The notes: generated by a model not told the origin, from the sequence alone. A stretch of DNA of 64,000 nucleotides from Candidatus Moraniibacteriota bacterium (GCA_017983435.1 JAGOBM010000006.1:11921-75920), one strand, 5' to 3'; shown: positions 3,711-42,204, numbered from the stretch's first letter. A program made the numbers and translations.

Positions 3711-5265
<1,555 letters not shown>

Positions 5266-5501
5266 AAACAGAGGAATGCCATCCCGAAGGATGCATTCCA
5301 AATGAAAACAATTGAAAGGAAATCCGCCATCTCCCTCTGTACAAGTACAGAAGAAAGAGGACTAACCACAAAAAATTGTGATTTGTTAAACTATATATTT
5401 GGCTCGAACAGATTGTTAAGGTGCCTTTTTTGCCATTCATCCCGAAAGGAAGAAAGCAAAGAGAAACAAAAGCAATCTAAATATTTCTAGACTGCCTACC
5501 T

Positions 5502-18715: not shown

Positions 18716-18773
18716 TCGCCAGTTTCGTCTTCGCGAAAGGACTCGCTCCTGCCCGTTCGATTCCCCTTAGGGC
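18716..18773. repeat. conserved 47-nt block (copy 1) fused to a 19-nt inverted copy of the tRNA-Glu 3' end
   Basis: 18716-18762 matches 20515-20561 with 2 mismatches. 18755-18773 is the exact reverse complement of tRNA-Glu gene positions 18829-18847. Confidence 0.8.
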
Positions 18774-18778
18774 AAACA

Positions 18779-18820
18779 AACCAAAAACCTCCCGGAAATA
18801 TATCCGGAAGGTTTTTGGTT
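18779..18820 (-). terminator. rho-independent terminator after tRNA-Glu (17-bp hairpin + U-run)
   Basis: aaccaaaaacctcccgg / ccggaaggtttttggtt, one mismatch. Confidence 0.6.
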
Positions 18821-18826
18821 AACTTG

Positions 18827-18898
18827 TAGCCCTAAGGGGAATCGAACCCCTGTTTCCTCCGTGAGAGGGAGATGTCCTAGCCGCTAGACGATAGGGCC
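18827..18898 (-). tRNA. tRNA-Glu (anticodon CTC)
   Basis: rc gives GGCCCTA-TC-GTCT...anticodon loop CTCTCAC...T-loop GGGGTTCGATTCCCC...TAGGGCT-A; aligns to bacterial tRNA-Glu. Confidence 0.8.
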
Positions 18899-19008
18899 CC
18901 TTATGAACAGCTAATAGTTGATAGCTTATAGTTTATAGCTCTTTGAGAAATTCGAATACAATCCGCGACTCTAAAAAACTAACAACTATAAGCTATCAAC
19001 TGTTCACG
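18899..19008. repeat. inter-tRNA spacer forming a large AT-rich inverted repeat (gaacag...gttgatagcttatagtt / aactataagctatcaactgttc)
   Basis: Arms ~22 nt; motif tagcttatag recurs at 13702 and 14150. Confidence 0.5.
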
Positions 19009-19601: not shown

Positions 19602-20297
19602 TCACATCGTCGACAGTGCTGATGGATTATGCAGATACAAGAACCCATCACGCCGTGTCCAGCCGATACCAGGATGACTATCCCCGTCCAATATGAGCCA
19701 CGGCCCCTCCGATTCTCTCTGGAGAGCCAGACGGCAAATACCACCGAAATCTCCTCGGACGGGAGTATGCATCACCATCAGGGTATCGATACCCATCCGG
19801 CGCAGCATATCATCCGTCAGATACTGCCGGAGGAACGGTACCAGACCGATAGGCGGCTCGACATATCCACGCTCGATAGCCATGCGTTCTATATTCTCGA
19901 GCGTCCGATCAGTGTCTGTCAGCTCACTGCCCAGCAGGATACTGCACTCATACACGAGTCCGGAGGTCATATTGTCCACCATGGGATCCCCGAGCAGATC
20001 CTCGACTCCCCGACCGAACTGGCATCCATCCTGAGCCAGATCCCGAAGAATCATTCCCATAGTCTGCGGCGACGGAGTGATCGAAAAATGCGGCGAGAGC
20101 GGATCATCATCAATAGCGGCCGCGACCACAGCCAGAGTCGGTATCACCACCACGTCAGCACGCCCCTCCATAATCTCGACCAGCTTCTCCCACAAGCCAT
20201 TTTGTTGGATATATTTGACGATTTCCACTTCGGTAGACAGGATAGTCCCATCGCGAAGATAGATCGGTGCTACCCGAGTGACGGTTGAGAACAGCAT
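19602..20297 (-). CDS. conserved-looking hypothetical protein
   Basis: AGGAGG SD 6 nt before ATG; protein-like composition, whereas the antisense ORF 19629..20288 is Arg/His/Ser-rich; no family recognised. Confidence 0.55.
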   Translation of the reverse strand: MLFSTVTRVAPIYLRDGTILSTEVEIVKYIQQNGLWEKLVEIMEGRADVVVIPTLAVVAAAIDDDPLSPHFSITPSPQTMGMILRDLAQDGCQFGRGVEDLLGDPMVDNMTSGLVYECSILLGSELTDTDRTLENIERMAIERGYVEPPIGLVPFLRQYLTDDMLRRMGIDTLMVMHTPVRGDFGGICRLALQRESEGPWLILDGDSHPGIGWTRRDGFLYLHNPSALSTM

Positions 20298-20380
20298 GAT
20301 ATCCTCCTGATTGGTATAATCTCAAAGAACGCCCGTAACTCTACCGGATTCCCACAAAAAGTAAAGTGTCACAATAAAAA

Positions 20381-20421
20381 AACAAGCCCCTGCACCTAGA
20401 AGGCGCTGAGGTTTGTTTTTG
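20381..20421 (-). terminator. rho-independent-like hairpin + U-run downstream (minus sense) of the 148-nt tRNA-like element
   Basis: aaaacaagcc...ggtttgtttt, then TTTTTTT on the minus strand. Confidence 0.4.
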
Positions 20422-20423
20422 TG

Positions 20424-20571
20424 TGGGTAGGGAGGGATTTCCGCCTCGTCGTCTGCTGACGACTTCGTTGCCCTGGGCAGCGCCAGATGCTTGCTCGCGC
20501 GCATCTGTCGACACTCGCCAGTTTCGCCTTCGCGAAAGGACTCGCTCCTGCCCGTTCGAATCCCTCCCTAC
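20424..20571 (-). other. 148-nt element bounded by perfect inverted copies of the tRNA-Tyr 3' end; minus-strand RNA would have a 13-bp acceptor-like stem ending in CCA; contains conserved 47-nt block (copy 2)
   Basis: 20424-20439 directly repeats tRNA-Tyr gene 20626-20641 (tgggtagggagggatt). 20554-20571 is its inverted copy. 20515-20561 matches the 18716-18762 block. Confidence 0.75.
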
Positions 20572-20580
20572 TTCAAAATA

Positions 20581-20619
20581 AAACTACAAAAGCACCCAGG
20601 ATGGGTGCTTTTGTAGTTT
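20581..20619 (-). terminator. rho-independent terminator after tRNA-Tyr (perfect 18-bp hairpin + U-rich tract)
   Basis: aaactacaaaagcaccca gga tgggtgcttttgtagttt. Confidence 0.65.
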
Positions 20620-20625
20620 ATACTG

Positions 20626-20709
20626 TGGGTAGGGAGGGATTCGAACCCCCGTAGCCCGTAGGGCGTCAGATTTACAGTCTGATGCATTTGACCGCTCTGC
20701 TACCTACCC
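20626..20709 (-). tRNA. tRNA-Tyr (anticodon GTA), long variable arm
   Basis: rc: GGGTAGGTAGCAGAGCGGTCAAATGCATCAGACTGTAAATCTGACGCCCTACGGGCTACGGGGGTTCGAATCCCTCCCTACCCA. Confidence 0.85.
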
Positions 20710-20791
20710 ATTTTCGTAAAATAACCAAGCACCGAAATCCAATCACCAAATAAATCTCAATTCTCAATTATTCAAAATCCAAATAGGTTTG

Positions 20792-20853
20792 TTTGGAATT
20801 TGAAATTTGGTTATTGGAATTTATTTGGAAATTGAAATTTGGTTATTGGAAAT
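20792..20853. repeat. two tandem ~30-nt AT-rich direct repeats (tttggaaWttgaaatttggttattggaaWt) between tRNA-Thr(TGT) and tRNA-Tyr
   Basis: Units at 20792-20820 and 20824-20853; only two copies, no spacer structure. Confidence 0.7.
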
Positions 20854-20861
20854 TCCACTAG

Positions 20862-31440: not shown

Positions 31441-33825
31441 ATGAGGGAACGAAAAGGAGAAAAACCAAAGGCGTTTCAGGAGTACGACCGTGTCATTACG
31501 GAGATCCAAGCGACCCGAGGACGGAATGCCGAACACTTCATAAAGATTTTCCGGCACGAAAACGATAATGTCGCTGGCGCTTCGCTCGGCGTCCTGCTTG
31601 GTGTTTTTGAGATCGATGACCAGAGCGAGGATTCCAAGTATATCGTCAATTTCCTTTTCTCCGTCGCCAAGAACGAATACTTCTGCAATCCTCGGCGCGG
31701 CGCCATGGAAAGCTTCGAAGCGGCGCTCCATAAGATCAACGTCGCCCTCGCTGAGATCGTCAAACATGGCAATATCGACTGGCTCGGCAAGTTCCACGGC
31801 ACCATAGCGATCATCGAAAAAAACTCCATCCATCTCTCCGCTACCGGCGATGGCCGCATCTATCTCTTCCGCAACGGTACGCTCTCGCATATCAGCGAAG
31901 GACTCGCTTCTCCGGATGCCGCGGAGCATCCGATCAAGACCTTCATCGAGATCTCCAGCGGTCGGCTCGCACCCGATGATCGTCTCCTCTTTTTTCTGCC
32001 TCAGGTCTTCTCGCTGCTCGATGAAGAAACCATCGAACGCCAAGCACAGCGCATGGACAAAGACCGGTTCGCTCAATTCCTCCGCACCGCCATGATCAAC
32101 GAGCTTGATCGGAGCGGCGCCATCATCGTCGATATCACCGAGCCAAGCGAGTCCGCTCGCGCCAAAGCGGAGGCCCCCGAAAGACAGCGTCCGGAAATCA
32201 AAAGCTATTTTTCCGAGGCCGCCTTCGAAGCGAAGCATCAGGAAAGCATCGCCGCGGCCCTTTCTGAGGAATCTCCGCACCATGCCTCAGGAACATCCGA
32301 ATACACCGATACGAAAACCGGCCATATCTATGTCCAGGGAGACGAGAATAGCACGCCGATAGAGACGTCCCGTTTCGCGGAGTATCTCGAGGATTTCTTC
32401 CATTCGAGCCGAGTCATCCGCGAGCAAGGCACCCGGGCCATGCGCCGGTCTTTCCGCAACTTCTCCGATCGAAGCCGCCTCTTCTGCGTCGCATCTGCGG
32501 AGCGATGCCGCCAGATCAGTGTCGGATTTTTCAAAAAACATCTCCGCTCCAGACGACCAGGAGCGACTGAATCCATCGCCACCCTCGAACCAGTCGCTGT
32601 TCTTCAAAAGCAACCGGTGCCTCAGACACCACCACATCACCCTACCGATACGCCCCGTCTACCGCTCTCATCGGCAGCGATACCAGCCACACCGGGATCA
32701 CCCCGTATCAAGGCTTCTTTTTCACAGTTTTCCCAAACATCCGGGCGTATAGCCGCCAAGACCGCTCCACTGTTCCGTAGAGCGCTCGCCTCTCTCCAGA
32801 CGGTTGCTGGTATGATTGTTTCCTGGCTTCGCACTTGGATACCCCGGCTCTCGAGCCAGATTGTCCGCTCTATACGCCCTGCTCTCTCACATATCGTCCG
32901 CCTCTTCCAAAGACTTCCGTTCAAAGCCCGCATCGGAGTACTCCTGCTCTCTACCGCGAGCATCGCGACTTTCTTCTGGATTATGGCGCGCCCCGATACC
33001 TCCGAACCGGCACCGACTTCGGAACCAGAGACAAACCTTTCCGAGGTAGAACCAACCGCATCCATCCGATCAACCGAAACACTCGCGGCCGATCTCCCAG
33101 CTCTGCGCCTTCTCTCAGAACACGCCGATACCATAGCCATCGCCTCTCTCAACGACACCCTCGTCATCGCCACCCGGACGACGATCGAAATCCCCTCACT
33201 CGCCATTTCAGCAGTACTCCCGGCCGAAAGCGGAGCGGTCCGCGCTATCGCTCCGATGCCTGACCTCCGGACATTGTTTATCCTCACCGAAAGCGGAAAA
33301 CTACTCTCCTTCACCCCTTCCAATACGACATTCACAGAAAACACCCTCCCAACCGACACTCATTCTATTCAGGCCATCGGCGCCTATCTCACCTATCTCT
33401 ACGCGCTCGATGGAAACAGCGGCCAGATCTATCGCTTCCCGCGCGCTCAGGGCGGATTCAGTGAGGGTCTCGCCTGGCTCAAACCATCGATTGCTCCAGA
33501 CAGAGAGGCGACATTTGCGGTCAACGACATGGTCTCTCTCTTTGCCCATGGTTCACTCCGCCAGTTTTCACGCGGCAAAGAAGTCCGGACTTTTGAAATG
33601 CCCAACGTACCTCTACAAACCCTGCTCTTAGCCTCCGAACCAGACAACACCCGCATCGTCGGACTCGATAATCAGAACCATCGCCTCGTCATCTGGAATA
33701 CCGAAGGTGCTATCGAACAGCAGTACTTCTCCGACCGCCTTGCTGACATCCGCAGTCTCTCGCTCCACGGACCAGTAGTCAGCCTCTCCACTGATACCGC
33801 AGTATTCGAGCTTATTCTTCCTTAG
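31441..33825 (+). CDS. 794-aa single-pass membrane protein: N-terminal degenerate PP2C/SpoIIE-like domain, low-complexity linker, C-terminal extracytoplasmic domain
   Basis: ...GKFHGTIAIIEKNSIHLSATGDGRIYLFRNG resembles PP2C motifs; TM IGVLLLSTASIATFFWIM around aa 520; bidirectional terminator after stop. Confidence 0.55.
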   Translation: MRERKGEKPKAFQEYDRVITEIQATRGRNAEHFIKIFRHENDNVAGASLGVLLGVFEIDDQSEDSKYIVNFLFSVAKNEYFCNPRRGAMESFEAALHKINVALAEIVKHGNIDWLGKFHGTIAIIEKNSIHLSATGDGRIYLFRNGTLSHISEGLASPDAAEHPIKTFIEISSGRLAPDDRLLFFLPQVFSLLDEETIERQAQRMDKDRFAQFLRTAMINELDRSGAIIVDITEPSESARAKAEAPERQRPEIKSYFSEAAFEAKHQESIAAALSEESPHHASGTSEYTDTKTGHIYVQGDENSTPIETSRFAEYLEDFFHSSRVIREQGTRAMRRSFRNFSDRSRLFCVASAERCRQISVGFFKKHLRSRRPGATESIATLEPVAVLQKQPVPQTPPHHPTDTPRLPLSSAAIPATPGSPRIKASFSQFSQTSGRIAAKTAPLFRRALASLQTVAGMIVSWLRTWIPRLSSQIVRSIRPALSHIVRLFQRLPFKARIGVLLLSTASIATFFWIMARPDTSEPAPTSEPETNLSEVEPTASIRSTETLAADLPALRLLSEHADTIAIASLNDTLVIATRTTIEIPSLAISAVLPAESGAVRAIAPMPDLRTLFILTESGKLLSFTPSNTTFTENTLPTDTHSIQAIGAYLTYLYALDGNSGQIYRFPRAQGGFSEGLAWLKPSIAPDREATFAVNDMVSLFAHGSLRQFSRGKEVRTFEMPNVPLQTLLLASEPDNTRIVGLDNQNHRLVIWNTEGAIEQQYFSDRLADIRSLSLHGPVVSLSTDTAVFELILP

Positions 33826-33854
33826 GGATACCCTCTAGAGAAGTATCGAGGAGC

Positions 33855-33890
33855 AAAAACAGCGATCACCCGCTGTTTTCTCTTTTTATC
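33855..33890. terminator. bidirectional rho-independent terminator (aaaacagcg atcacc cgctgtttt)
   Basis: 9-bp hairpin with flanking A-run and T-run between convergent genes. Confidence 0.6.
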
Positions 33891-33901
33891 CCCTCACTCC
33901 T

Positions 33902-34664
33902 TTACTTGCAACAAACGATAGAAATCGTAGCATCAGAGGTATATTCATCATCATCGGTCAAGCAGGCCTGTATATTGGCAGGATCAAAACTTATATCCCA
34001 ATCAGACTGGCCTGAAGCACTATTGCCAACACTGCGCATATAACAACCTGTTTTTTGATACTCTCCAAGACACTCTATCCCCCAAAGACGTATAAAAGAT
34101 TCATCCCGTATACTACTTCCTGTTCCAATAGACGCAACTTCTGATGTATCGCCGGTGGTAGTGCTTCCGTCCTTATAATACACCCGGATAGAATCATTTT
34201 TATACCGTGTCGCCTGCACGCAAGAGAGCCCGCTTGCCGCCACCGCCGTCTCCACCACTCGTGTGGTCCCAAAAGCGGAGCCTTCTGATTTGATCCGTAC
34301 CACAGTGTCTCTCCAATCCGTAGCGGCACAGGTGACGAGCACTCCATCATTGTCATAGAACGAGACTTTGATATTGCCTCCGACAACATTGCTCTTGGAA
34401 ATGGTGTCCGGCACAGGAGGCTCCGCCTCCCATGGCGGTAGCCATGGCATTGAGATCGGTGTAGTTGTTCTTGTAGATCTTCTGGAGAGCGAGCTCGATA
34501 CCGGAGTCAGCCACTTGGAAGGATTGGACGGATTTGCCGGTAGAAGAGGCGGAACGCTGATTGGTGATAGAGACACTCGCTACCGTGATAGCGGCGGAGA
34601 GGATGATGCTCAAGATGATGAGAGAGAAGACGAGGACAGAGCCTTTTTTGGGGAGGAGAGGCAT
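33902..34664 (-). pseudogene. pilin/pseudopilin-like gene split by a frameshift near 34430-34450
   Basis: ORF 34353..34664 has a class-III-like signal-anchor (MPLLPKKGSVLVFSLIILSIILSAAITVA) but a junk C-terminus. ORF 33902..34576 has a junk Pro/Ser N-terminus, then a globular Cys-containing domain. The two frames overlap by ~220 nt. Confidence 0.45.
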
Positions 34665-35143
34665 AGAAGATTTGAGTTATTGTTTGGTTTCAGTTTACGC
34701 TGTTTTGAGTGAGGGAGCAAGATGCGAAAGTAGATTTTTTCTGTGATTAAGAATTTCTTCCTGCTGGTTTCCCAGACCAGAAAATGCAATCCAGAGAATG
34801 CAGACCCCCACCGACCCAGCCAGCAAATTTTTTCCTCACTATCGGTTTAAAGCACCTCGGGCTTCAGAAAAAATCTCTGGCTGGGTCGGCGAGGGGGTGG
34901 TATTACAACGTCACAGTGAAATCGATTCCTAGACCAGAACAAAAGCACAAAGAACCATCAGCCGATCTCACTTCAGGGCGCGGCTTGAAAGCATTTCAGC
35001 ATGGTTTCCGTCAGGATGACGGAATGAAATGCTTTCACGTCAGTCAAAAGCTCGCAGGGATTTTGACGGCGCCATGAGGTGAGTCGGTTGGTGGTTCTCC
35101 GATGGGAATGCGGTTTTTTTTATAATTGAAGGGAAATTTTATC

Positions 35144-37630
35144 TCATATTTTTTCAGCCAGTTTGACCCGATCCATGATTTCACGGTTGACGATAGTCGC
35201 GTCGCGACCGAACCGCAACCGGGACAGCTCTTTCAGGGCATTGGCGATTTCCTGACTGCCCCGCGTCGGCGGATAGGTCTTCATGTTGAATGGCTTGGTC
35301 AGTTCTCCATTCATCAACAGGCGAGCGAAACAATTGTAATTATCCACGTTCATCAGGTCGTTCGGACTGAAGACCGGTGAGAACTGCTTCTCGAGAAATT
35401 CTGCATCTTCCGGACCGACTCGAAACGCCACCATCGAACCGACATTGCCGAAGACCGCCTTGGATATCTCCTCCTTGAGCTGCGCGATGAATTGGTGCGC
35501 CAAGACCAGACAGAGGCGATACTTGCGCGCTTCCGAGAGAATCTGCGCGATCGAATTCGTCGTGACATTCTGAAACTCATCCAGATAGAGATAGAAATCC
35601 TGCCGCTCATCTTCCGGAGTATCGACGCGAGACAGCGCTGCCATGAGCAACCGACCGACGATAACCATACCGAGCAACTTGGCGTTGATCTCCCCGATCT
35701 TGCCTTTGGAAAGATTGACGAGGAAAATCTTCTTTCCATCCATGATATCTCGGAAATCGAGGGCGCTCTTCTGCTGCGCGATAATCGGACGCATGATGTC
35801 GTTCGAGATGAAGGTCGTCAGCTTGGACGTGATATAGGGGACCATATTGGCCAGCGCTGCCTCGCCACCAGCCTTCTCGGCTTCCTTGAGCCAGAAATCA
35901 CGGACAATCGGATTCGTGCAGTGTTCGAGCTTGTACCGGCGAAACTCCTCATCCGCCAGCACCTTGGATATCTCCATAAGCGTCGAACCGCTTTCCGGAT
36001 GTTCCATGATCAAGAGCATCGCATTGCGCATATACTGCTCGAACATCGGCCCTCCGGTCGATTTGAGATCATACAACTGATCGAAGATACCGATCATCTC
36101 ATTGATGATGAAAGTCTTCTGCTCGGGATGCGCCGGGTCGTATTCGAGCATATTGATACCGATCGGTCGGGCGATATCTGATGGATCAAACACAATGACA
36201 TCCTCCGCCCGCTCCTTCGGAATCGCCGTCAGGATATCCTCGATCGCATCACCATGCGGATCGATAAAGCAGAAACCCTTGCCAGCTGCCGCATCTTTCT
36301 TCGCCATTTCCTGGAGAAAATTCGATTTTCCAGCCCCAGTCTGACCGATCGCATAGAGATGACGACGACGATCATTGTCCGTGATGCGTATCTCTGATTT
36401 GGCTCCACGATAGTCATTAAATCCGAGCAAGAGTCCCTCGGTCGGGATATTGATCGGAGGAGCAGCCGCACCGGATTTGAGCCATTTGATCTTCGGTGTT
36501 TCCGTCGTAGAAATCGGGAAATGGAAGATGCTTGCGATTTCCTCGATACCGAGCACACAAGCATGCTCTTCGTCGAAGGTCCGGAAGATATATTCGAAGA
36601 CCGCCCGCTTTTCTTTCACCCGGCGTAGTACTTTGAATGTATTAACATCCGGATTTTCAAATTGTCCGAACGCGTTTTCCATCTGAGAGAGTATCTCTTC
36701 GGCCCGAGCGTGATCCGCTGCTGTCGCGATCAGGCGGATATTGACCCGGAACGCTGCCTTGCCTGATTTGGCCTCGATAGCTTTTACCAGATCTTGCTCT
36801 TCCGGAGTCAGCGAGATCGGCTTTGGCTCATTCGCTTCCGGATGCGTCTGGGATGACAAGACACTCACCATCCCCTTCCCGAGCTCTTTACCGGCATCCT
36901 GCAAGAGAGACGAGTCGCTATGCGCATCCTTGAGCCGCTGCCCACCCTGCATCCTCTGGGCGATCGACTTGCCTGCGGACCGCCAATCGCTCGGAGCGCC
37001 TGAGAGCACCACCTGGATCGCCGCGCCTTCGGCTTCCGTCTTGAGCCGGGAGAGCGCGTTGGAAATCTCATTGAGCGGATCAGCACCGATCGAACGATAG
37101 GTGCGGAGCGGGAGAGCGTAGTTGTTCCGGAGACCGATCGTCGCGACCGCCGTCGCACTGTCTGGGGAAAAGACGGTGTAGTCGGATACCTTTTCGATCA
37201 CCGCGTTCGGGAAAAAACTATGTATCTGCTTCTCGATGCTTTCGCGGAAACGCTTCGGGACGGAAATATAGAAAAATATCTCCTCGCTGTTCGAGGGATT
37301 GGCGATTTCAAACACGATATTGGGCGCCGTATAGAACCACTGCCTCCAAGAACCCGTCTTCCATTTGATCGTCGCGACTGATGAGAGCAGTTGTTCCATC
37401 GCTGCCACTTCGTCCCGCCAGGCTTCGGCATCATGATTCTGTGCTTCTCCGGATGAACGGTTCGGACGGGATACTTTGACGACCTCCAGATCAGCATTCA
37501 TCGACTGGCTGACAGCGATACGAAATCGGAGCACGCTCCTGACTATAAGGAAGACACCCGAAAAAAACGCCAACAGACCAAAAACACCCAAGAGCGGTGC
37601 CAGGACTATATTCCAATCGAAACCCGACAT
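35144..37630 (-). CDS. membrane-anchored FtsK/HerA-superfamily P-loop ATPase (VirB4/VirD4/DUF87-like secretion or DNA-translocation ATPase)
   Basis: N-terminal TM (IVLAPLLGVFGLLAFFSGVF). Walker A AIGQTGAGKS around aa 440, then FIDPHGD, Walker B FYLYLDEFQNV, and ARKYRLCLVLAHQF (HerA/VirB4-type C-terminal motif). Confidence 0.65.
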   Translation of the reverse strand: MSGFDWNIVLAPLLGVFGLLAFFSGVFLIVRSVLRFRIAVSQSMNADLEVVKVSRPNRSSGEAQNHDAEAWRDEVAAMEQLLSSVATIKWKTGSWRQWFYTAPNIVFEIANPSNSEEIFFYISVPKRFRESIEKQIHSFFPNAVIEKVSDYTVFSPDSATAVATIGLRNNYALPLRTYRSIGADPLNEISNALSRLKTEAEGAAIQVVLSGAPSDWRSAGKSIAQRMQGGQRLKDAHSDSSLLQDAGKELGKGMVSVLSSQTHPEANEPKPISLTPEEQDLVKAIEAKSGKAAFRVNIRLIATAADHARAEEILSQMENAFGQFENPDVNTFKVLRRVKEKRAVFEYIFRTFDEEHACVLGIEEIASIFHFPISTTETPKIKWLKSGAAAPPINIPTEGLLLGFNDYRGAKSEIRITDNDRRRHLYAIGQTGAGKSNFLQEMAKKDAAAGKGFCFIDPHGDAIEDILTAIPKERAEDVIVFDPSDIARPIGINMLEYDPAHPEQKTFIINEMIGIFDQLYDLKSTGGPMFEQYMRNAMLLIMEHPESGSTLMEISKVLADEEFRRYKLEHCTNPIVRDFWLKEAEKAGGEAALANMVPYITSKLTTFISNDIMRPIIAQQKSALDFRDIMDGKKIFLVNLSKGKIGEINAKLLGMVIVGRLLMAALSRVDTPEDERQDFYLYLDEFQNVTTNSIAQILSEARKYRLCLVLAHQFIAQLKEEISKAVFGNVGSMVAFRVGPEDAEFLEKQFSPVFSPNDLMNVDNYNCFARLLMNGELTKPFNMKTYPPTRGSQEIANALKELSRLRFGRDATIVNREIMDRVKLAEKI

Positions 37631-37663
37631 AATCTGTTTTTGTTTGTTTTTTACTCTGCCTCT

Positions 37664-38107
37664 CTACTCCCGATCGATCATACCTTTCTCGACCAGTCCT
37701 TGATAGAACTTGTCTACCAACTCATCATGCATGCGATCCAACAGGTAGTAATTCTTCATCTTGCGGGCCACATTCACTCCATGCAGGACACCCTTCTGCA
37801 TAACCAGGTCGAGGAGGCGCGTCACTTGACTTTCCGTATCGCCGAGGAGAGAAAGATTGCGTGCGTCATCATGCGCATCGTCCCGCATGACAGCGCCTGC
37901 CTGCCCTGACACCAGTGCTGTTTTCTGGAGAATCTCTGATAACTTTCCTGTTTCAACTTCTCCCTTCGATTCAACCACCTGCTCCGGCACCGGTTCCGCC
38001 GAACCCGCTTCCACCTGTGGCGCAGACGTCGAACCAGACTCCGCCGAAGCAGCTTCAAACACCGCCCCAAACGTATTGTCACTGGATTTCAGATCTTCTG
38101 CGGGCAT
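37664..38107 (-). CDS. hypothetical protein (acidic N-terminus)
   Basis: ATG start; ORFan inside the operon. Confidence 0.45.
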   Translation of the reverse strand: MPAEDLKSSDNTFGAVFEAASAESGSTSAPQVEAGSAEPVPEQVVESKGEVETGKLSEILQKTALVSGQAGAVMRDDAHDDARNLSLLGDTESQVTRLLDLVMQKGVLHGVNVARKMKNYYLLDRMHDELVDKFYQGLVEKGMIDRE

Positions 38108-38118
38108 ACGATTCCGTA

Positions 38119-38442
38119 TCAGCTCAATTTCACTGTCTCCTTGAACTCCTTGACGATACCAGCCACAAAATCATCGTACTCGGGGATGCGCGAACGGAAA
38201 AATTGCGCTATATCGTCATCCGAAGGCGATTTCTCGAGCAGCGCTTCATATTCCCCTATGCCTGACTCACCGATTTTCGCCATGGATTCGGCATAAATCA
38301 CCTTGATCAGCGAAGCAAACGCCATCTCGAGAGCCTCTTCCTGCTTCTCTTCCGAAAAAGCACTCAGGCCGAACTCCTGCACCAGCTGTTGTCGGATCTC
38401 TTCTCTGTCAATCATCGGCTCCGTCATACATATGCATGTCAA
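38119..38442 (-). CDS. hypothetical small acidic protein
   Basis: ORFan, tightly spaced with neighbours. Confidence 0.4.
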   Translation of the reverse strand: MTCICMTEPMIDREEIRQQLVQEFGLSAFSEEKQEEALEMAFASLIKVIYAESMAKIGESGIGEYEALLEKSPSDDDIAQFFRSRIPEYDDFVAGIVKEFKETVKLS

Positions 38443-38451
38443 AAAATTATA

Positions 38452-41043
38452 TTATCGACTGGTCGAAAAAATCCCATATATTGTCCCTTGAGTCGCTCTC
38501 GGGGCTGCCTGCTTCAGGTACTCCTCTACCGTGCCATTGACATTGCCTCGGAAGAATTCCGTCATCGAGACGACACCGGCCTTCTGTAGGCTCGCAGCGA
38601 ATTCATAAAAATTGCGATACTGCTCCGGAGCAAGGCTACTACGATACCCCATCACCTTTCCGGCAGCGAAAGCCTGCGTGTCCCGGATGACATCCGCGAC
38701 CTTCACCCGCATGATTTCGGACCGATTCAGCACCCAATCCTGACCAGGAGTCGGACTCTCAACCCGGAAAATCTGCGCATACCAATCATCCACACGAGGA
38801 GCATGTTCTGAAACCGCGACTTCCTCCGCTAGAGGAGTCACCTCTGGCCTGGTTTCGGCAATCACCGACTCCACTGCCGGCGTATCGATCGAGATCGGTG
38901 ATGTTGCCAATGTTGCATCCATCTTGGCCAGAGCCGCCTCTCGTACCGCATCGACATTCGATACCGGCGCGTGAGGTGCGACGGTCTCCACGAAGCGCCG
39001 CGCATCGGCCAGGTATCGATCCAGATCCTGTGTCCCGAAGAGACGGGTGAAGTCAATACGATCACCCGGACGCAACTGCGCGATATCACCACTCGAAATA
39101 CCGAGCGCCCGGACCTCAGCCGGAGACAATGAAGCTGCTTTGTCCTTGATCGCATCTATCAGGGCATGCGACTGTCCGACATTCAATCCTAGTCCGCCGG
39201 TCCGCTCCTGCACGAGATTCCAGAAGTTATCACCCGCCTTCACATTGGCAGTCTTGAGAAAATTCGAATATTCGGATGAGAAGCCTTCTATGGACGCATG
39301 CGGCACTTCCGTTATCCGCTCAGGAACTGCAGATACCGCTGGCTGTGTTTCTACTGGTGTTGCCACCGGATCGGCCACACTGGCTTCTGGCAAGAGCGTC
39401 TCATCAGTCGCATCAGGGAGAGCGGCCAGACCGAATGATCGATCAAGCCATCCGATACCGGTCCCATGATCCATCACGTGTTGCACACCCTCACCGATCC
39501 AGCCCTTCCCGACGACGAGGCCAAGCGCGGCGCCCGACGCACCGATCAGGAGTTTCCGACGCTTCATCGCATCCACTCGTTCACGGAAAAGTCCGGAAGC
39601 TTCTTTGCCTGTTTGGAGATGCTGTTCGACAAACAGTTTCACTGATGCTTCAAAATCCCGCGCTTTCTCAGCCCGAGTCTCATCATCCATATCCATCATC
39701 AGGTCGGCATTACCTGTCTGCGCTTCTATCTCCGCAATCTTATCAAAAATTTTCTGTCCCGCCTCCTCAGCCTGCGCTCGGGCCCGCGCATCAGCCCGTC
39801 CTTCGAGCGCCGTATCGAGCGTCACCGAAAGTGAGCCTCCTGCCAAGACCGCCCGAGCAAAAGCCGCCCCGAAAGCCGCCGCGCCTCCAGCCGCCGTCAC
39901 TCCCACGAGAGCGCCACCGATCGTCAATTTCTCATACCATTTGAGCCCATTATACGCATGCATCCACTGAGAAAGCTTCTCTCCGATACGCCCATGAAGC
40001 GAGCTCGATTTTCGTTTTATTTCTGCCTGCTTGCGTGCCTCGTATAATTGCACACGGCCTTCGAATTCACCGAAGTTCAGCACCTCCGCCATTTCCCGCT
40101 TGTATGCATCACTTCGATCACCGGCATATTTCCGTTCGATACGTGCTAGACGCTCCTGAGTGAATCGGAGACGAGCCTCCTCATAGCGCGTGCGGGCATC
40201 ATCCACGTCTTCCAGAGGCACTTCCTGCTTGAGTCCGAACAGATTCCGCAGACGCAGCAGTGTGCTTGATTTTTCAAGGTCAACCGAGACGTAGCGCTCT
40301 CGAGCGATAGCCAGATCATTCTTCAGTGTTTCCAGCAAAGCATCCGCCTGGACCGTCTCTTCCGGAATCACAGCGGCTTCTTTCGGTAGACGGCCGTATT
40401 TGCGCAACACTTCCGCTTCCGCGGCTGATCCCGGCGCTGCGAATGCAGCCTCTTGCTGTTGTTTCAAATCTGCATCCTCAGCATCCAGCTCGGCAGGCTC
40501 CGCCATACTCGCCTTGATAAGTTCCGAAGCCCGGGCCTCTTCCTCCGGAGAGAGCGGCGTCGGCAACGGCTGGATCGGCAAAGTCGGATCGATTTCCACC
40601 CCCGCGCCATCTGTGCGCTCTCGTACGCCGAATCCCTTCAGGACTTCCTTCGGAAATTCTCCAGCTATCTCTTGAGCTGAATACTCTTCGGCGGGTGCGG
40701 AAGGCAGAGGAGGATGTGTCGTATCTTCCTTGATCAGATGCTGCACGGTCTCCATATCAGGATTCGTCAACGCACGACCATCCGGCGTCACGATAAAATC
40801 CTCAACCCCATCCAGAACAGGGTCCAGCGGCTCTACTACCGGCTGTTCGGCACGTTTCGTATTGGTTCGCCGGCGTCGGCGCAAGACCTGAGGAGCCGGC
40901 TCAGTCATAGGCTCTGCTGCCAAAGACAAAGTCGGTTCGATCTTCTCAGTCGACTTATCTGGCAACTGCGACAAATCCTCAGCCAGCTTATCGCCCATGC
41001 TGCGGATCCGTGCCAATACTGCCTCCATCTTCTTGTCCTCCAT
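38452..41043 (-). CDS. 863-aa membrane protein: acidic/coiled-coil N-terminus, two glycine-zipper TM segments, C-terminal LysM-like motif (tentative)
   Basis: GGALVGVTAAGGAAAFGAAFARAVLAGG and LLIGASGAALGLVVG hydrophobic Gly-zippers; VKAGDNFWNLVQE...GDIAQLRPGDRIDF LysM-like. Confidence 0.55.
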   Translation of the reverse strand: MEDKKMEAVLARIRSMGDKLAEDLSQLPDKSTEKIEPTLSLAAEPMTEPAPQVLRRRRRTNTKRAEQPVVEPLDPVLDGVEDFIVTPDGRALTNPDMETVQHLIKEDTTHPPLPSAPAEEYSAQEIAGEFPKEVLKGFGVRERTDGAGVEIDPTLPIQPLPTPLSPEEEARASELIKASMAEPAELDAEDADLKQQQEAAFAAPGSAAEAEVLRKYGRLPKEAAVIPEETVQADALLETLKNDLAIARERYVSVDLEKSSTLLRLRNLFGLKQEVPLEDVDDARTRYEEARLRFTQERLARIERKYAGDRSDAYKREMAEVLNFGEFEGRVQLYEARKQAEIKRKSSSLHGRIGEKLSQWMHAYNGLKWYEKLTIGGALVGVTAAGGAAAFGAAFARAVLAGGSLSVTLDTALEGRADARARAQAEEAGQKIFDKIAEIEAQTGNADLMMDMDDETRAEKARDFEASVKLFVEQHLQTGKEASGLFRERVDAMKRRKLLIGASGAALGLVVGKGWIGEGVQHVMDHGTGIGWLDRSFGLAALPDATDETLLPEASVADPVATPVETQPAVSAVPERITEVPHASIEGFSSEYSNFLKTANVKAGDNFWNLVQERTGGLGLNVGQSHALIDAIKDKAASLSPAEVRALGISSGDIAQLRPGDRIDFTRLFGTQDLDRYLADARRFVETVAPHAPVSNVDAVREAALAKMDATLATSPISIDTPAVESVIAETRPEVTPLAEEVAVSEHAPRVDDWYAQIFRVESPTPGQDWVLNRSEIMRVKVADVIRDTQAFAAGKVMGYRSSLAPEQYRNFYEFAASLQKAGVVSMTEFFRGNVNGTVEEYLKQAAPRATQGTIYGIFSTSR

Positions 41044-41064
41044 ACATCGTCAGATTATATCATC

Positions 41065-42204
41065 TCATTGTAGAACATTTTTTGCAATCCGCTGCATCAC
41101 GATATCGATAGCTCGATCGCGATCAGCGGCCAGCGCGATATTGCCGACCCGTGACAACACCTGGTCAAGATAGGTCGAGACGCAAACGCGCTGCGATGCC
41201 TGATCAAACCCATCCCCCATCTCTTCCGAGAGCAGCTCTACGAGTTGCGCTGCCGAATCCGCCATGATATCGAGGAGCATATCGGCATCCTTGGCACATC
41301 CGGCCAAAAGCTGCTGCCACTCCTCCGACCTATCTATCGCTTCAACCGAAACTGAGACATTCTCTTCGAGGCCAGTCGCTTCTGTCACTGCTCGATCAGC
41401 GCTCTGGGAAAATCTCCCGACATTCTTCGGGTCATTCCGATCAAAAACCAGCGTGCCGACATAATTCGTATCATGCGTCAGCAGCACACACGACACCGTA
41501 TCTCCTTCCACCCGCTCGATACGGTACTGGCTCCCGCCCTGCTCGGCATCTGCGATCTCGACGCCCGCTTCCATCACGAAGCCGTGCTCCACCCGAGGTG
41601 ATTCAGGCTGCGAAGCCGCTGCCGGAACCTCATCATGTTTGCGCACATCCAAATCGTCCTGCAAAACCCGCAATCTCTCGATGACCTCTTGGTCGTGTTC
41701 ACCTTCATTACCCAAACGTATGATTTCATCCAACTCGGCCAGCCAGCTATCGAGCAGCCCGGACAATCGTTTCGCTTCCTTCTTAGAAATGCGGTTATTC
41801 ATGCGTCGCACATTGAGAGTGGTGCGATATCGCTCGATCTGACCATGAGCGGCATCGATCTCATTCTGCAGCCACCCCATCATCGCCTCCAGAGGATCCA
41901 CCGCCAAAGACTCGGGGTCAGAAGGAACTACTAGGGTCACCTCTCTTTCGTGGTAAGGATCAGCCGACACAATATCAACATCCTCATGCTTCGGACTGGA
42001 CGCCGCTTCATGTATCACCGGATGATCCGGCCGCTTTGACTGGCTCTTCTTCGCCGGTATCGAAGTATCGGCACGCTCCCAGCGTTCCTGATCACGGCGC
42101 AGCTGCGTCAAACCAGCCGCCGGAGCTGCTGTTTTTTTCGATTTCTTCGGTTTTGCAGCAACATGATCGACTTCCAATCCTGCAGCCTGCATATTCTCAG
42201 TCAT
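41065..42204 (-). CDS. hypothetical acidic coiled-coil protein
   Basis: ATG start 22 nt upstream of the next gene; no TM; no motif. Confidence 0.5.
   Translation of the reverse strand: MTENMQAAGLEVDHVAAKPKKSKKTAAPAAGLTQLRRDQERWERADTSIPAKKSQSKRPDHPVIHEAASSPKHEDVDIVSADPYHEREVTLVVPSDPESLAVDPLEAMMGWLQNEIDAAHGQIERYRTTLNVRRMNNRISKKEAKRLSGLLDSWLAELDEIIRLGNEGEHDQEVIERLRVLQDDLDVRKHDEVPAAASQPESPRVEHGFVMEAGVEIADAEQGGSQYRIERVEGDTVSCVLLTHDTNYVGTLVFDRNDPKNVGRFSQSADRAVTEATGLEENVSVSVEAIDRSEEWQQLLAGCAKDADMLLDIMADSAAQLVELLSEEMGDGFDQASQRVCVSTYLDQVLSRVGNIALAADRDRAIDIVMQRIAKNVLQ

Follow-up and report, generated by a model that had tools for sequence, protein, structure and literature searches.

A constant structured core with arms matched to the neighboring tRNA gene in Candidatus Moranbacteria: a candidate non-autonomous insertion element

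Genes for tRNA are classic landing sites of integrating DNA, and to our knowledge every known case of integration at a tRNA gene relies on a fixed attachment (att) sequence together with an integrase carried by the element. Fragments of tRNA genes are reportedly a by-product of such integration, as Williams is said to have noted in 2002. In the integron attC site and the attP(+) site of CTX phage, the recombining site is a folded single-strand hairpin, the stem of which re-creates the duplex of the recombination target. Here we describe an element of ~145 nucleotides (nt) situated behind the tRNA-Tyr gene in a 64,000-nt stretch of DNA from Candidatus Moraniibacteriota bacterium (GCA_017983435.1 JAGOBM010000006.1:11921-75920; "the window" denotes this whole 64-kb stretch). 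It consists of a constant core flanked by an inverted and a direct copy of the 3' part of the adjoining tRNA gene, and copies of the core at other tRNA genes carry arms that match those genes. A literature search returned no description of such an element.

The window was compared with orthologous loci (L-numbered below) from contigs encoding either homologues of a 231-amino acid (aa) open reading frame (ORF) located beside the element or the same or a similar L33 protein; the named L33 homologues belong to Candidatus Moranbacteria, a lineage of the candidate phyla radiation (CPR). This genome is represented by the 64-kb window and its relatives by short loci, which yielded six distinct sequences of the element family present here (family B) and four of a sister family (family A); all comparisons among copies refer to these. 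RNA genes were sought on both strands with ARAGORN and with Infernal against Rfam (gathering score and E <= 10), repeats were mapped by self-BLAST of the window, and neighboring proteins were scanned with Pfam and PADLOC.

In the order of tRNA transcription, each unit comprises the tRNA, a strong terminator hairpin, an "anti-arm" complementary to tRNA positions 53 to ~70, the core, a direct copy of positions 58 to ~75 and the original terminator (coordinates for the window in Table 1). An earlier note on this DNA had proposed that direct and inverted copies of the tRNA-Tyr 3' end bound the segment, and self-BLAST bears this out with exact 18-nt matches: 20422-20439 and 20624-20641 are identical at 18/18 positions, and an exact inverted 18-mer match within 300 nt has a chance expectation of ~4e-9. 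The insert at tRNA-Tyr is real and non-random. The terminators described in the same note, one on either side of the segment, are also real. The hairpin following tRNA-Tyr (20581-20619) has a perfect 18-bp stem, the loop AUCCU and a U-run (-29.1 kcal/mol), and reads as a terminator in either direction; the second, beyond the element, is followed by the promoter region of the 231-aa ORF. The tRNA-Tyr gene has no encoded CCA, its end reading ...CCCTACCC-A-CA, and the 3' CCA that had been taken for a tRNA-like end of the element is simply C71-C72-A73 of the copied tRNA end; the copies at tRNA-Glu genes end in UACA or CCGA, without CCA.

Folded as minus-strand RNA, the element is closed by a 13-bp helix formed by the anti-arm and the 3' arm (GUAGGGAGGGAUU/AAUCCCUCCCUAC), with a predicted minimum free energy of -70 kcal/mol (z = -4.6; 0/200 shuffled sequences fold as well). 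The fold contains the 13-bp acceptor-like helix and the hairpins gtcgtc/gacgac and cagatgc/gcatctg that had been picked out earlier, and within the GC-rich core, which ends in GAGGCGGA, there is a further candidate long-range helix, GGGCAG/CUGCCC.

Table 1. Features of the element at tRNA-Tyr and of its second copy at tRNA-Glu(CTC), in window coordinates
Feature	Position	Strand	Basis or remark
tRNA-Tyr(GTA), host/target gene	20625..20709	-	ARAGORN; Rfam RF00005, 64.6 bits
Trailer and terminator between tRNA-Tyr and element	20572..20624	-	tail UUUUAUUUUGAA
Anti-arm GTAGGGAGGGATTCGAAC	20554..20571	-	exact reverse complement of tRNA-Tyr positions 53-70 (20629-20646), self-BLAST
Family B core, 114 nt	20440..20553	-	folds, consensus structure, conservation
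Hairpin b, UUUCGC-GAAG-GCGAAA	20522-20537	-	fold
Hairpin c, CAGAUGC...GCAUCUG, GCGA tetraloop cap	20484-20507	-	fold
Hairpin d, GUCGUC-AGCA-GACGAC	20448-20463	-	fold
3' arm AATCCCTCCCTACCCACA	20422..20439	-	direct copy of tRNA-Tyr positions 58-73 plus trailer bases CA
Second intrinsic terminator, downstream of element	20372..20421	-	-22.7 kcal/mol, then UUUUUUU
tRNA-Glu(CTC), host of second copy	18826..18898	-	ARAGORN, Rfam
Terminator hairpin between tRNA-Glu and second copy	18779..18821	-	absent from empty alleles L038, L039
Truncated second copy, family B	18716..18773	-	self-BLAST, comparison with L001

The "conserved 47-mer", of which the earlier note had counted a second copy, does recur: 20515-20564 matches 18716-18765 with 48/50 identity in the self-BLAST. 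The anti-arm of this second copy, GCCCTAAGGGGAATCGAAC (18755-18773), mirrors tRNA-Glu (reverse complement of positions 53-71) and not tRNA-Tyr, a switch that the earlier note had not remarked on; a constant module is thus joined to a variable segment that follows the nearest tRNA. Only the first 39 nt of the core (18716-18754) are kept; comparison with the intact copy at tRNA-Glu(CTC) in L001 (5596-5738) shows that an internal deletion at a GCGA microhomology removed the remaining core together with the 3' arm and the native terminator. In the intact copy both arms are of the Glu type (GCCCTAAGGGGAATCGAAC, core, TAATTCCCCTTAGGGCTACA). A scan with the window's own version of hairpin b gave no matches in genome and metagenome contigs, and that hairpin was later found to vary. 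An invariant 26-mer of the core, used as a second pattern on genome, metagenome and viral contigs, gave one genome match (L013, a metagenome-assembled genome of Moranbacteria), one true metagenome match (L022, a further copy at tRNA-Tyr) and none in viral contigs; eight other metagenome matches were chance hits in coding DNA. In L013 the core follows tRNA-Glu(TTC), and its arms CCAAGGGGAGTCGAAC and ACTCCCCTTGG match the GTTCGACTCCCCTTGG of that tRNA. At this locus (L013 280-850) the 3' arm is cut short after ACTCCCCTTGG and abuts a stretch of low GC content (42%, against ~50% elsewhere in the locus), in which a 183-aa ORF without a family match runs on the opposite strand.

Both arms thus match the adjoining tRNA at Tyr-GTA, Glu-CTC and Glu-TTC, while the core stays 94-99% identical, and no single att identity block characterizes the family, one core occurring with the block of Tyr, of Glu-CTC or of Glu-TTC. 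Junctions do not vary among the six distinct family B copies (6/6). The anti-arm always ends ...TCGAAC and is followed by core GGGCAGG (complement of G53), and the core always ends GAGGCGKA and is followed by A58; G53 and A58 are the two edges of the T-loop. The closing helix is 13 bp long at Tyr, 14 bp at Glu-CTC and 11 bp at Glu-TTC, and reproduces the acceptor/T-stem "top half" of the neighboring tRNA, a coaxial mimic of the kind (~12 bp) expected of a tRNA-like processed RNA. The acceptor-like pairing, the loss of which in homologues the earlier note had named as fatal to its proposal, is therefore kept and changes together with the neighboring tRNA.

Comparison with relatives for an occupied or an empty site, which the same note had called for, revealed both states at tRNA-Glu(CTC), with the same boundaries. 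In L038 and L039 the site is cleanly empty, the tRNA being followed directly by the terminator GAGAAATCCTCACCCTTGCGGTGGGGATTTTTTTT. In L001, L033 and L035 it is occupied: GAGAAATCCTCACCCTTGCGGTGGGGATTTTTTTT is displaced to just past the 3' arm, and a different terminator, an anti-arm and a core lie between it and the tRNA. The insert amounts to ~205 nt and is flanked by an 18-20-nt duplication; a direct repeat of the tRNA 3' segment beside an intact tRNA is found at tRNA-Tyr and, in the same pattern, at tRNA-Glu in L001. At tRNA-Tyr, family B is missing from L007 and L011, where family A or a remnant of it is found. The unit is an insertion polymorphism. It also occurs in series, as A then B at tRNA-Tyr in L001 and as two A units in L041; family A stands alone in L011 and L023, and only decayed 5' stumps are left in L007, L026, L040 and L050.

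Conservation of the core was set against that of its surroundings. All copies are separated by 1-5 differences in the 77-nt 3' part of the core, and the window and L001 by 2-3, depending on which L001 copy is used, while the two loci share 76.7% DNA identity in pyrF and 86.4% in the 231-aa ORF; by this comparison the core is far more conserved than the adjacent protein genes. Substitutions follow the predicted pairing. In family B the helix CAGAUGC/GCAUCUG runs through A-U, G·U and G-C variants across copies, and the loop that caps helix c is either GCGA or GUGA, both of them GNRA tetraloops. Counting cells in which pairing is possible on one strand alone, there are 13 (family A) and 12 (family B) for the sense strand (G·U), against one and four for the antisense strand (A·C). 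Judged from these patterns, it is the tRNA-sense strand specifically that folds, and compensatory and G·U changes preserve the structure. The closing stem repeats tRNA positions 58-70, and the overall strand bias (25 G·U-only against 5 A·C-only cells) is compatible equally with RNA and with single-stranded DNA.

Family A offers a second view of the same design. Of its 54 predicted pairs, 7 show changes on both sides and few are broken, and the sense strand folds ~14 kcal/mol better than the antisense strand (~-69 against ~-55 kcal/mol). Its anti-arm is in two parts: GGUAGG pairs to the acceptor 3' strand and, beyond an intervening hairpin, GAGGGAU pairs to the T-stem 3' strand, which gives a 6-bp acceptor-like and a 7-bp T-stem-like helix around a three-way junction, again a "top-half" mimic. 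The motif GAGGGAU...GGAGCGA and a UUUCGCG hairpin are common to both families, which makes A and B distant relatives. Family A persists 3' of tRNA-Tyr across lineages with L33 proteins 83-100% identical.

Variation within the copies is in part shared by genome. Hairpin b is of the UUUCGC type in both window copies and of the UCCGCC type in both L001 copies, so that orthologous Tyr copies of different genomes differ in this hairpin; the terminators preceding the copies are unrelated in sequence, which implies that the core (with or without the arms) was copied or homogenized and the terminator was not. Relative to the window, hairpin b in L001 (3764-3779) and in L030 is replaced by UCCGCC-AGCU-GGCGGA, a perfect palindrome around the adjacent CTGGCG, a replacement that looks like a template-switch event. 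The loop of the 18-bp terminator is inverted between the window (ATCCT) and its close relative L030 (AGGAT), and in L022 the loops of two hairpin copies are inverted with respect to each other (GTCCT and AGGAC). The flip is confined to the terminator loop, and the flanking spacers are unchanged.

With roughly even confidence, we interpret these loci as a small family (~145 nt) of non-coding structured elements in Candidatus Moranbacteria, behaving as a non-autonomous insertion element anchored in a duplicated tRNA 3' end. The element would enter the segment from the T-loop to the 3' end of tRNA genes with help supplied in trans, and its closing stem would re-create the target duplex by analogy with a folded attC site or the attP of CTX phage. 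Transcribed by read-through from the tRNA promoter, it may yield an RNA with a tRNA-like stem, possibly cut by RNase P and RNase Z. The anti-arm could come to match its neighbor by being re-templated from the target at insertion, by gene conversion, or by template switching at palindromes; the flipped terminator loops and the palindromic replacement of hairpin b are independent traces of the last of these. A bolder version, which we regard as unlikely though not far-fetched, is a protein-free, self-retargeting mobile element or tRNA-linked RNA family. Here a ~110-nt core would enter at the T-loop and take both arms from the tRNA concerned, each copy mimicking its neighbor's acceptor/T-stem half; insertion would be target-templated and reprogrammable, with a folded single strand, or an RNA intermediate cut by RNase P and RNase Z, as the possible route.

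Several results weigh against an insertion element. In the 64-kb window and the short loci of relatives, no copy has a linked gene for a recombinase, transposase, reverse transcriptase or nuclease, and mobility in trans is accordingly assumed. No sigma-70-like promoter lies upstream of the element, and a strong terminator separates it from tRNA-Tyr, which makes expression uncertain. Deletion between the direct repeats would also give empty alleles, so that gain and loss are indistinguishable and the direction of change is not proven. Copies are decayed or truncated in several lineages (the window's Glu copy, L007, L040, L050) and are in those cases evidently dispensable, and the terminator hairpins differ completely between copies, which leaves the exact mobile or homogenized unit undefined. 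Finally, in the predicted fold of a read-through transcript the partner of the anti-arm is the tRNA itself (positions 53-70), not the 3' arm, and the 5' acceptor strand of the tRNA pairs with the distal 3' arm, an outcome that co-transcriptional folding would have to prevent.

The principal alternative, possible rather than probable in our estimation, is a resident, non-mobile small RNA gene linked to the tRNA. Its ~145-nt read-through RNA would mimic the acceptor/T-stem half of the neighboring tRNA, be excised by tRNA-processing enzymes and serve a cellular role of its own, with the arms matched by selection or gene conversion and the cores homogenized by gene conversion. Such a gene would account for a sense-strand-specific structure with compensatory changes, for orthologous copies far more conserved than neighboring coding DNA, for GCGA/GUGA variation that stays within the GNRA class, for the persistence of family A 3' of tRNA-Tyr, and for the division of its anti-arm into 6-bp acceptor-like and 7-bp T-stem-like helices. 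It sits less easily with a strong terminator directly upstream and no visible promoter, with an inconsistent downstream gene and a 3' tail that is not conserved; and presence/absence polymorphism, tandem accretion and frequent decay resemble an insertion element more. The term "tRNA-like small RNA", one of two interpretations offered in the earlier note, survives as regards the acceptor-like helix, and fails as regards a match to an RNA family and conservation of the CCA.

A functionless attL/attR scar, left by a deleted prophage, integrative and conjugative element (ICE) or plasmid that a tyrosine integrase had placed in tRNA-Tyr, we consider improbable. The direct repeat from the T-loop to just past the tRNA end is a classic identity block, the units lie in tandem, and other tRNA 3'-end duplications around short unrelated inserts exist in L045/L046 at Thr-GGT and Thr-TGT; tRNA fragments are moreover a known by-product of integration (PMC9897764). 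A scar does not explain one core at three tRNAs with both arms switched and identical junctions, a core conserved at 94-99% where neutral DNA should differ by 15-25%, or covariation. Nor was a larger parent seen: no longer, integrase-bearing element surrounds the core at any locus examined, no integrase or distal repeat occurs in the 8 kb downstream at L013, and BLAST of the element against phage and plasmid collections gave no match, in line with the empty viral scan. The other interpretation in the earlier note, a decayed integrative element, thus holds for the insertion footprint (occupied and empty alleles), whereas a plain prophage or ICE scar is at odds with the arm switching, conservation and covariation; and the proviso that relatives might carry the sequence within a longer, intact prophage or ICE is contradicted by every locus examined.

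Slimmer still is the chance that the structure is a by-product of DNA repair or replication, through template switching at palindromes or through fold-back repair of a cut made by a homing endonuclease in the tRNA T-loop, with no dedicated mobile element involved. Terminator loops that flip between relatives and the replacement of hairpin b by a perfect palindrome in some lineages speak in its favor, as do ORFs resembling homing endonucleases and anticodon-loop insertions, both located within these tRNA clusters in relatives, and, in L046, a pseudo-tRNA-Tyr with hairpins inserted exactly at 57/58. The junctions 52/53 and 57/58 would equal a 5-nt staggered cut in the T-loop, a cut deduced from the junctions themselves. 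Left unexplained is a conserved 110-nt core common to three tRNA loci and two distant genomes, and the spacers flanking the terminator are not complementary, unlike those of a simple snap-back copy, which we ruled out on that ground.

A guide RNA of the TnpB omega-RNA, Cas12k delocalized-crRNA or bridge-RNA type, in which a constant scaffold with a 16-19-nt programmable segment would target the tRNA gene for an RNA-guided nuclease or transposase, is very unlikely. A constant scaffold does lie beside a variable segment matching the nearest tRNA in three contexts, and GGG stands directly 5' of the matched segment in 3/3 targeted tRNAs. Against this, no effector gene is near: Pfam and PADLOC found no linked TnpB, IscB, Cas12 or IS110 family effector among the neighbors in the window or at any locus. 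Folding takes place on the tRNA-sense strand, where the variable segment lies hidden inside the closing helix; in family A a hairpin interrupts the segment, and there is no Rfam match. A true tRNA, transfer-messenger RNA (tmRNA), RNase P RNA or other catalogued RNA gene, suggested only superficially by an acceptor-like helix followed by CCA, is refuted: ARAGORN and Infernal, the checks proposed in the earlier note, returned no tRNA, tmRNA, RNase P RNA or other Rfam family over 20422-20571 on either strand, even at E <= 10, Rfam found only tRNAs in the relatives, and the element has no anticodon arm, T-loop, D-arm mimic or tag reading frame, just the 3' strands of a T-arm and acceptor being present, with no T-loop before the 3' arm (GGCGGA followed by AATCCC).

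Four other candidates were rejected. A cis-regulatory leader is ruled out by the downstream gene, which varies among copies (the 231-aa ORF, pyrF or a gene on the opposite strand), and a retron by the lack of a reverse transcriptase. Complementarity to tRNA positions 53-70 or 53-71, not to the 3' terminus with CCA, excludes a primer-binding site of a long terminal repeat (LTR) element. Family B did not arise from a tandem tRNA duplicate, the Glu anti-arm containing the reverse complement of the T-loop and not the T-loop itself. As to folded recombination sites, the junctions TTCGAAC and GAGGCGGA followed by AA do not fit the recombinase boxes (GTTRRRY/RYYYAAC, or dif-like arms), and no recombinase was found in the window or the loci of relatives.

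The 231-aa ORF (19602-20297, minus strand) lies between the element and tRNA-Thr(GGT), in a slot occupied by tRNA-Gly in the clusters of many bacteria. It has no match in Pfam, PADLOC, PHROGs or PDB and only seven close homologues, and its AlphaFold model is unusable (predicted local distance difference test score, pLDDT, 37). Other ORFs replace it in L041 and L042, and its absence from L022, which has the element, means that it is not counted as a partner.

The tRNA clusters hold further features. In the window, the spacer between tRNA-Thr(TGT) and tRNA-Tyr (20720-20854) is AT-rich, with a 32-nt unit present twice (93% matches) and 42-nt inverted arms (74% complementary); unrelated sequence takes its place in L001, L007 and L011. 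The spacer between tRNA-Trp and tRNA-Glu (18913-19004) contains a 32-nt AT-rich inverted repeat, its arms 84% complementary and 28 nt apart, also found in L001 and L041. In a close relative whose L33 protein is 96% identical, insertions of ~220 nt break up the anticodon loops of both tRNA-Tyr and tRNA-Thr(GGT) (L041 1985-2290 and 3155-3435; L042 2350-2650), and for this reason ARAGORN misses both genes. These are probably group I introns, which have been reported in this form for Patescibacteria (PMC13011429); Rfam made no call on them at gathering score. Free-standing homing-endonuclease-like ORFs are scattered through the same clusters (L041/L042 1371-1979, 2777-3145 and 3734-4042), among them a 202-aa ORF after tRNA-Thr(TGT) and a 122-aa paralogue (32% identity) that interrupts a family A copy, and a GIY-YIG ORF adjoins the L33 gene. 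The additional tRNA 3'-end duplications in more distant Moranbacteria (L045 3279-3365; L046 2651-2745 and 2780-2920) comprise a 19-nt repeat around a 67-nt insert at tRNA-Thr(GGT) and a 24-29-nt repeat around a 69-nt insert at tRNA-Thr(TGT), and the pseudo-tRNA-Tyr of L046 has two GC-rich hairpins between T-loop positions 57 and 58, the position of the element's 3' junction.

Elsewhere in the window, a 16S rRNA gene (3711-5270, minus strand) stands alone; no 23S or 5S rRNA gene is found in the 64 kb, and the rRNA genes are therefore not linked. At 31441-42204, an 828-aa protein with TraG/TrwB-type coupling-protein domains is surrounded by large ORFs (794, 863 and 379 aa) that have no Pfam match; the cluster may be a module for type IV secretion, DNA transfer or DNA uptake. 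Modules of this kind handle single-stranded DNA.

If the arms are written from the target, the element would have a novel means of selecting an insertion site and keeping a record of it; if it is an RNA, it would belong to a new class of tRNA "top-half" mimic in CPR bacteria, the non-coding RNAs of which are, as far as we know, almost unexplored. In genome annotation, pieces of tRNA 3' ends bordering inserts of this kind should be taken neither for pseudo-tRNAs nor for signs of a prophage.

Among known systems the element comes nearest to integrative elements that target tRNA genes and folded att sites, or to tRNA-like RNAs, but none of the types that we compared fully accommodates its combined features: a constant structured core, direct and inverted arms that match the target, and the lack of a linked gene. 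Like miniature inverted-repeat transposable elements, repetitive extragenic palindromic sequences and small palindromic repeats, the element is small, non-coding, hairpin-rich, intergenic and present at several loci, but it is strictly associated with tRNA 3' ends, it is flanked by an 18-20-nt duplication, and its "terminal inverted repeats" copy the target and not the element. With the delocalized crRNA of type V-K CRISPR-associated transposons and with TnpB omega-RNA it shares a constant scaffold and a short variable segment matching a tRNA gene, whereas here effector and transposon genes are missing and the segment is base-paired and lies at the 5' end on the folding strand. An LTR primer-binding site likewise has 18 nt complementary to the 3' part of a tRNA and would adapt to the tRNA used, but the complementarity here spans positions 53-70 and excludes the CCA, there are no LTRs or reverse transcriptase, and the direct copy carries trailer CA, not CCA.

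The acceptor/T-stem-like helix, in the same-strand transcription unit as a tRNA, recalls mascRNA, YrlA, viral 3' tRNA-like structures and tRNA 3'-trailer RNAs; the present element differs from them in having no T-loop or D-arm mimic and a variable 3' tail, in copying a particular neighboring tRNA and in lying beyond a strong terminator. Integrative elements of tRNA genes and their non-autonomous, att-flanked derivatives, cis-mobilizable elements (CIMEs) and att scars, have in common with it an intact tRNA beside a direct repeat of the tRNA 3' segment that reaches from the T-loop to a few nucleotides beyond the gene, tandem accretion, and occupied as well as empty alleles. Here, in contrast, the whole insert is ~205 nt, with no integrase or larger parent found, and the identity block and an extra inverted copy change with each target around a constant core with a strand-specific fold. 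From attC and CTX attP(+) the element is set apart by the lack of any known IntI or XerCD association, of GTTRRRY/RYYYAAC boxes and of cargo, and by a target that consists of the tRNA T-loop and 3' end. What it would share with those sites is a strand-specific hairpin, a stem that re-creates the target duplex and a structure conserved more than its sequence, and integration of the CTX type would be expected to leave the same layout: a hybrid site, a loop, an inverted copy, the body of the element and a second hybrid site.

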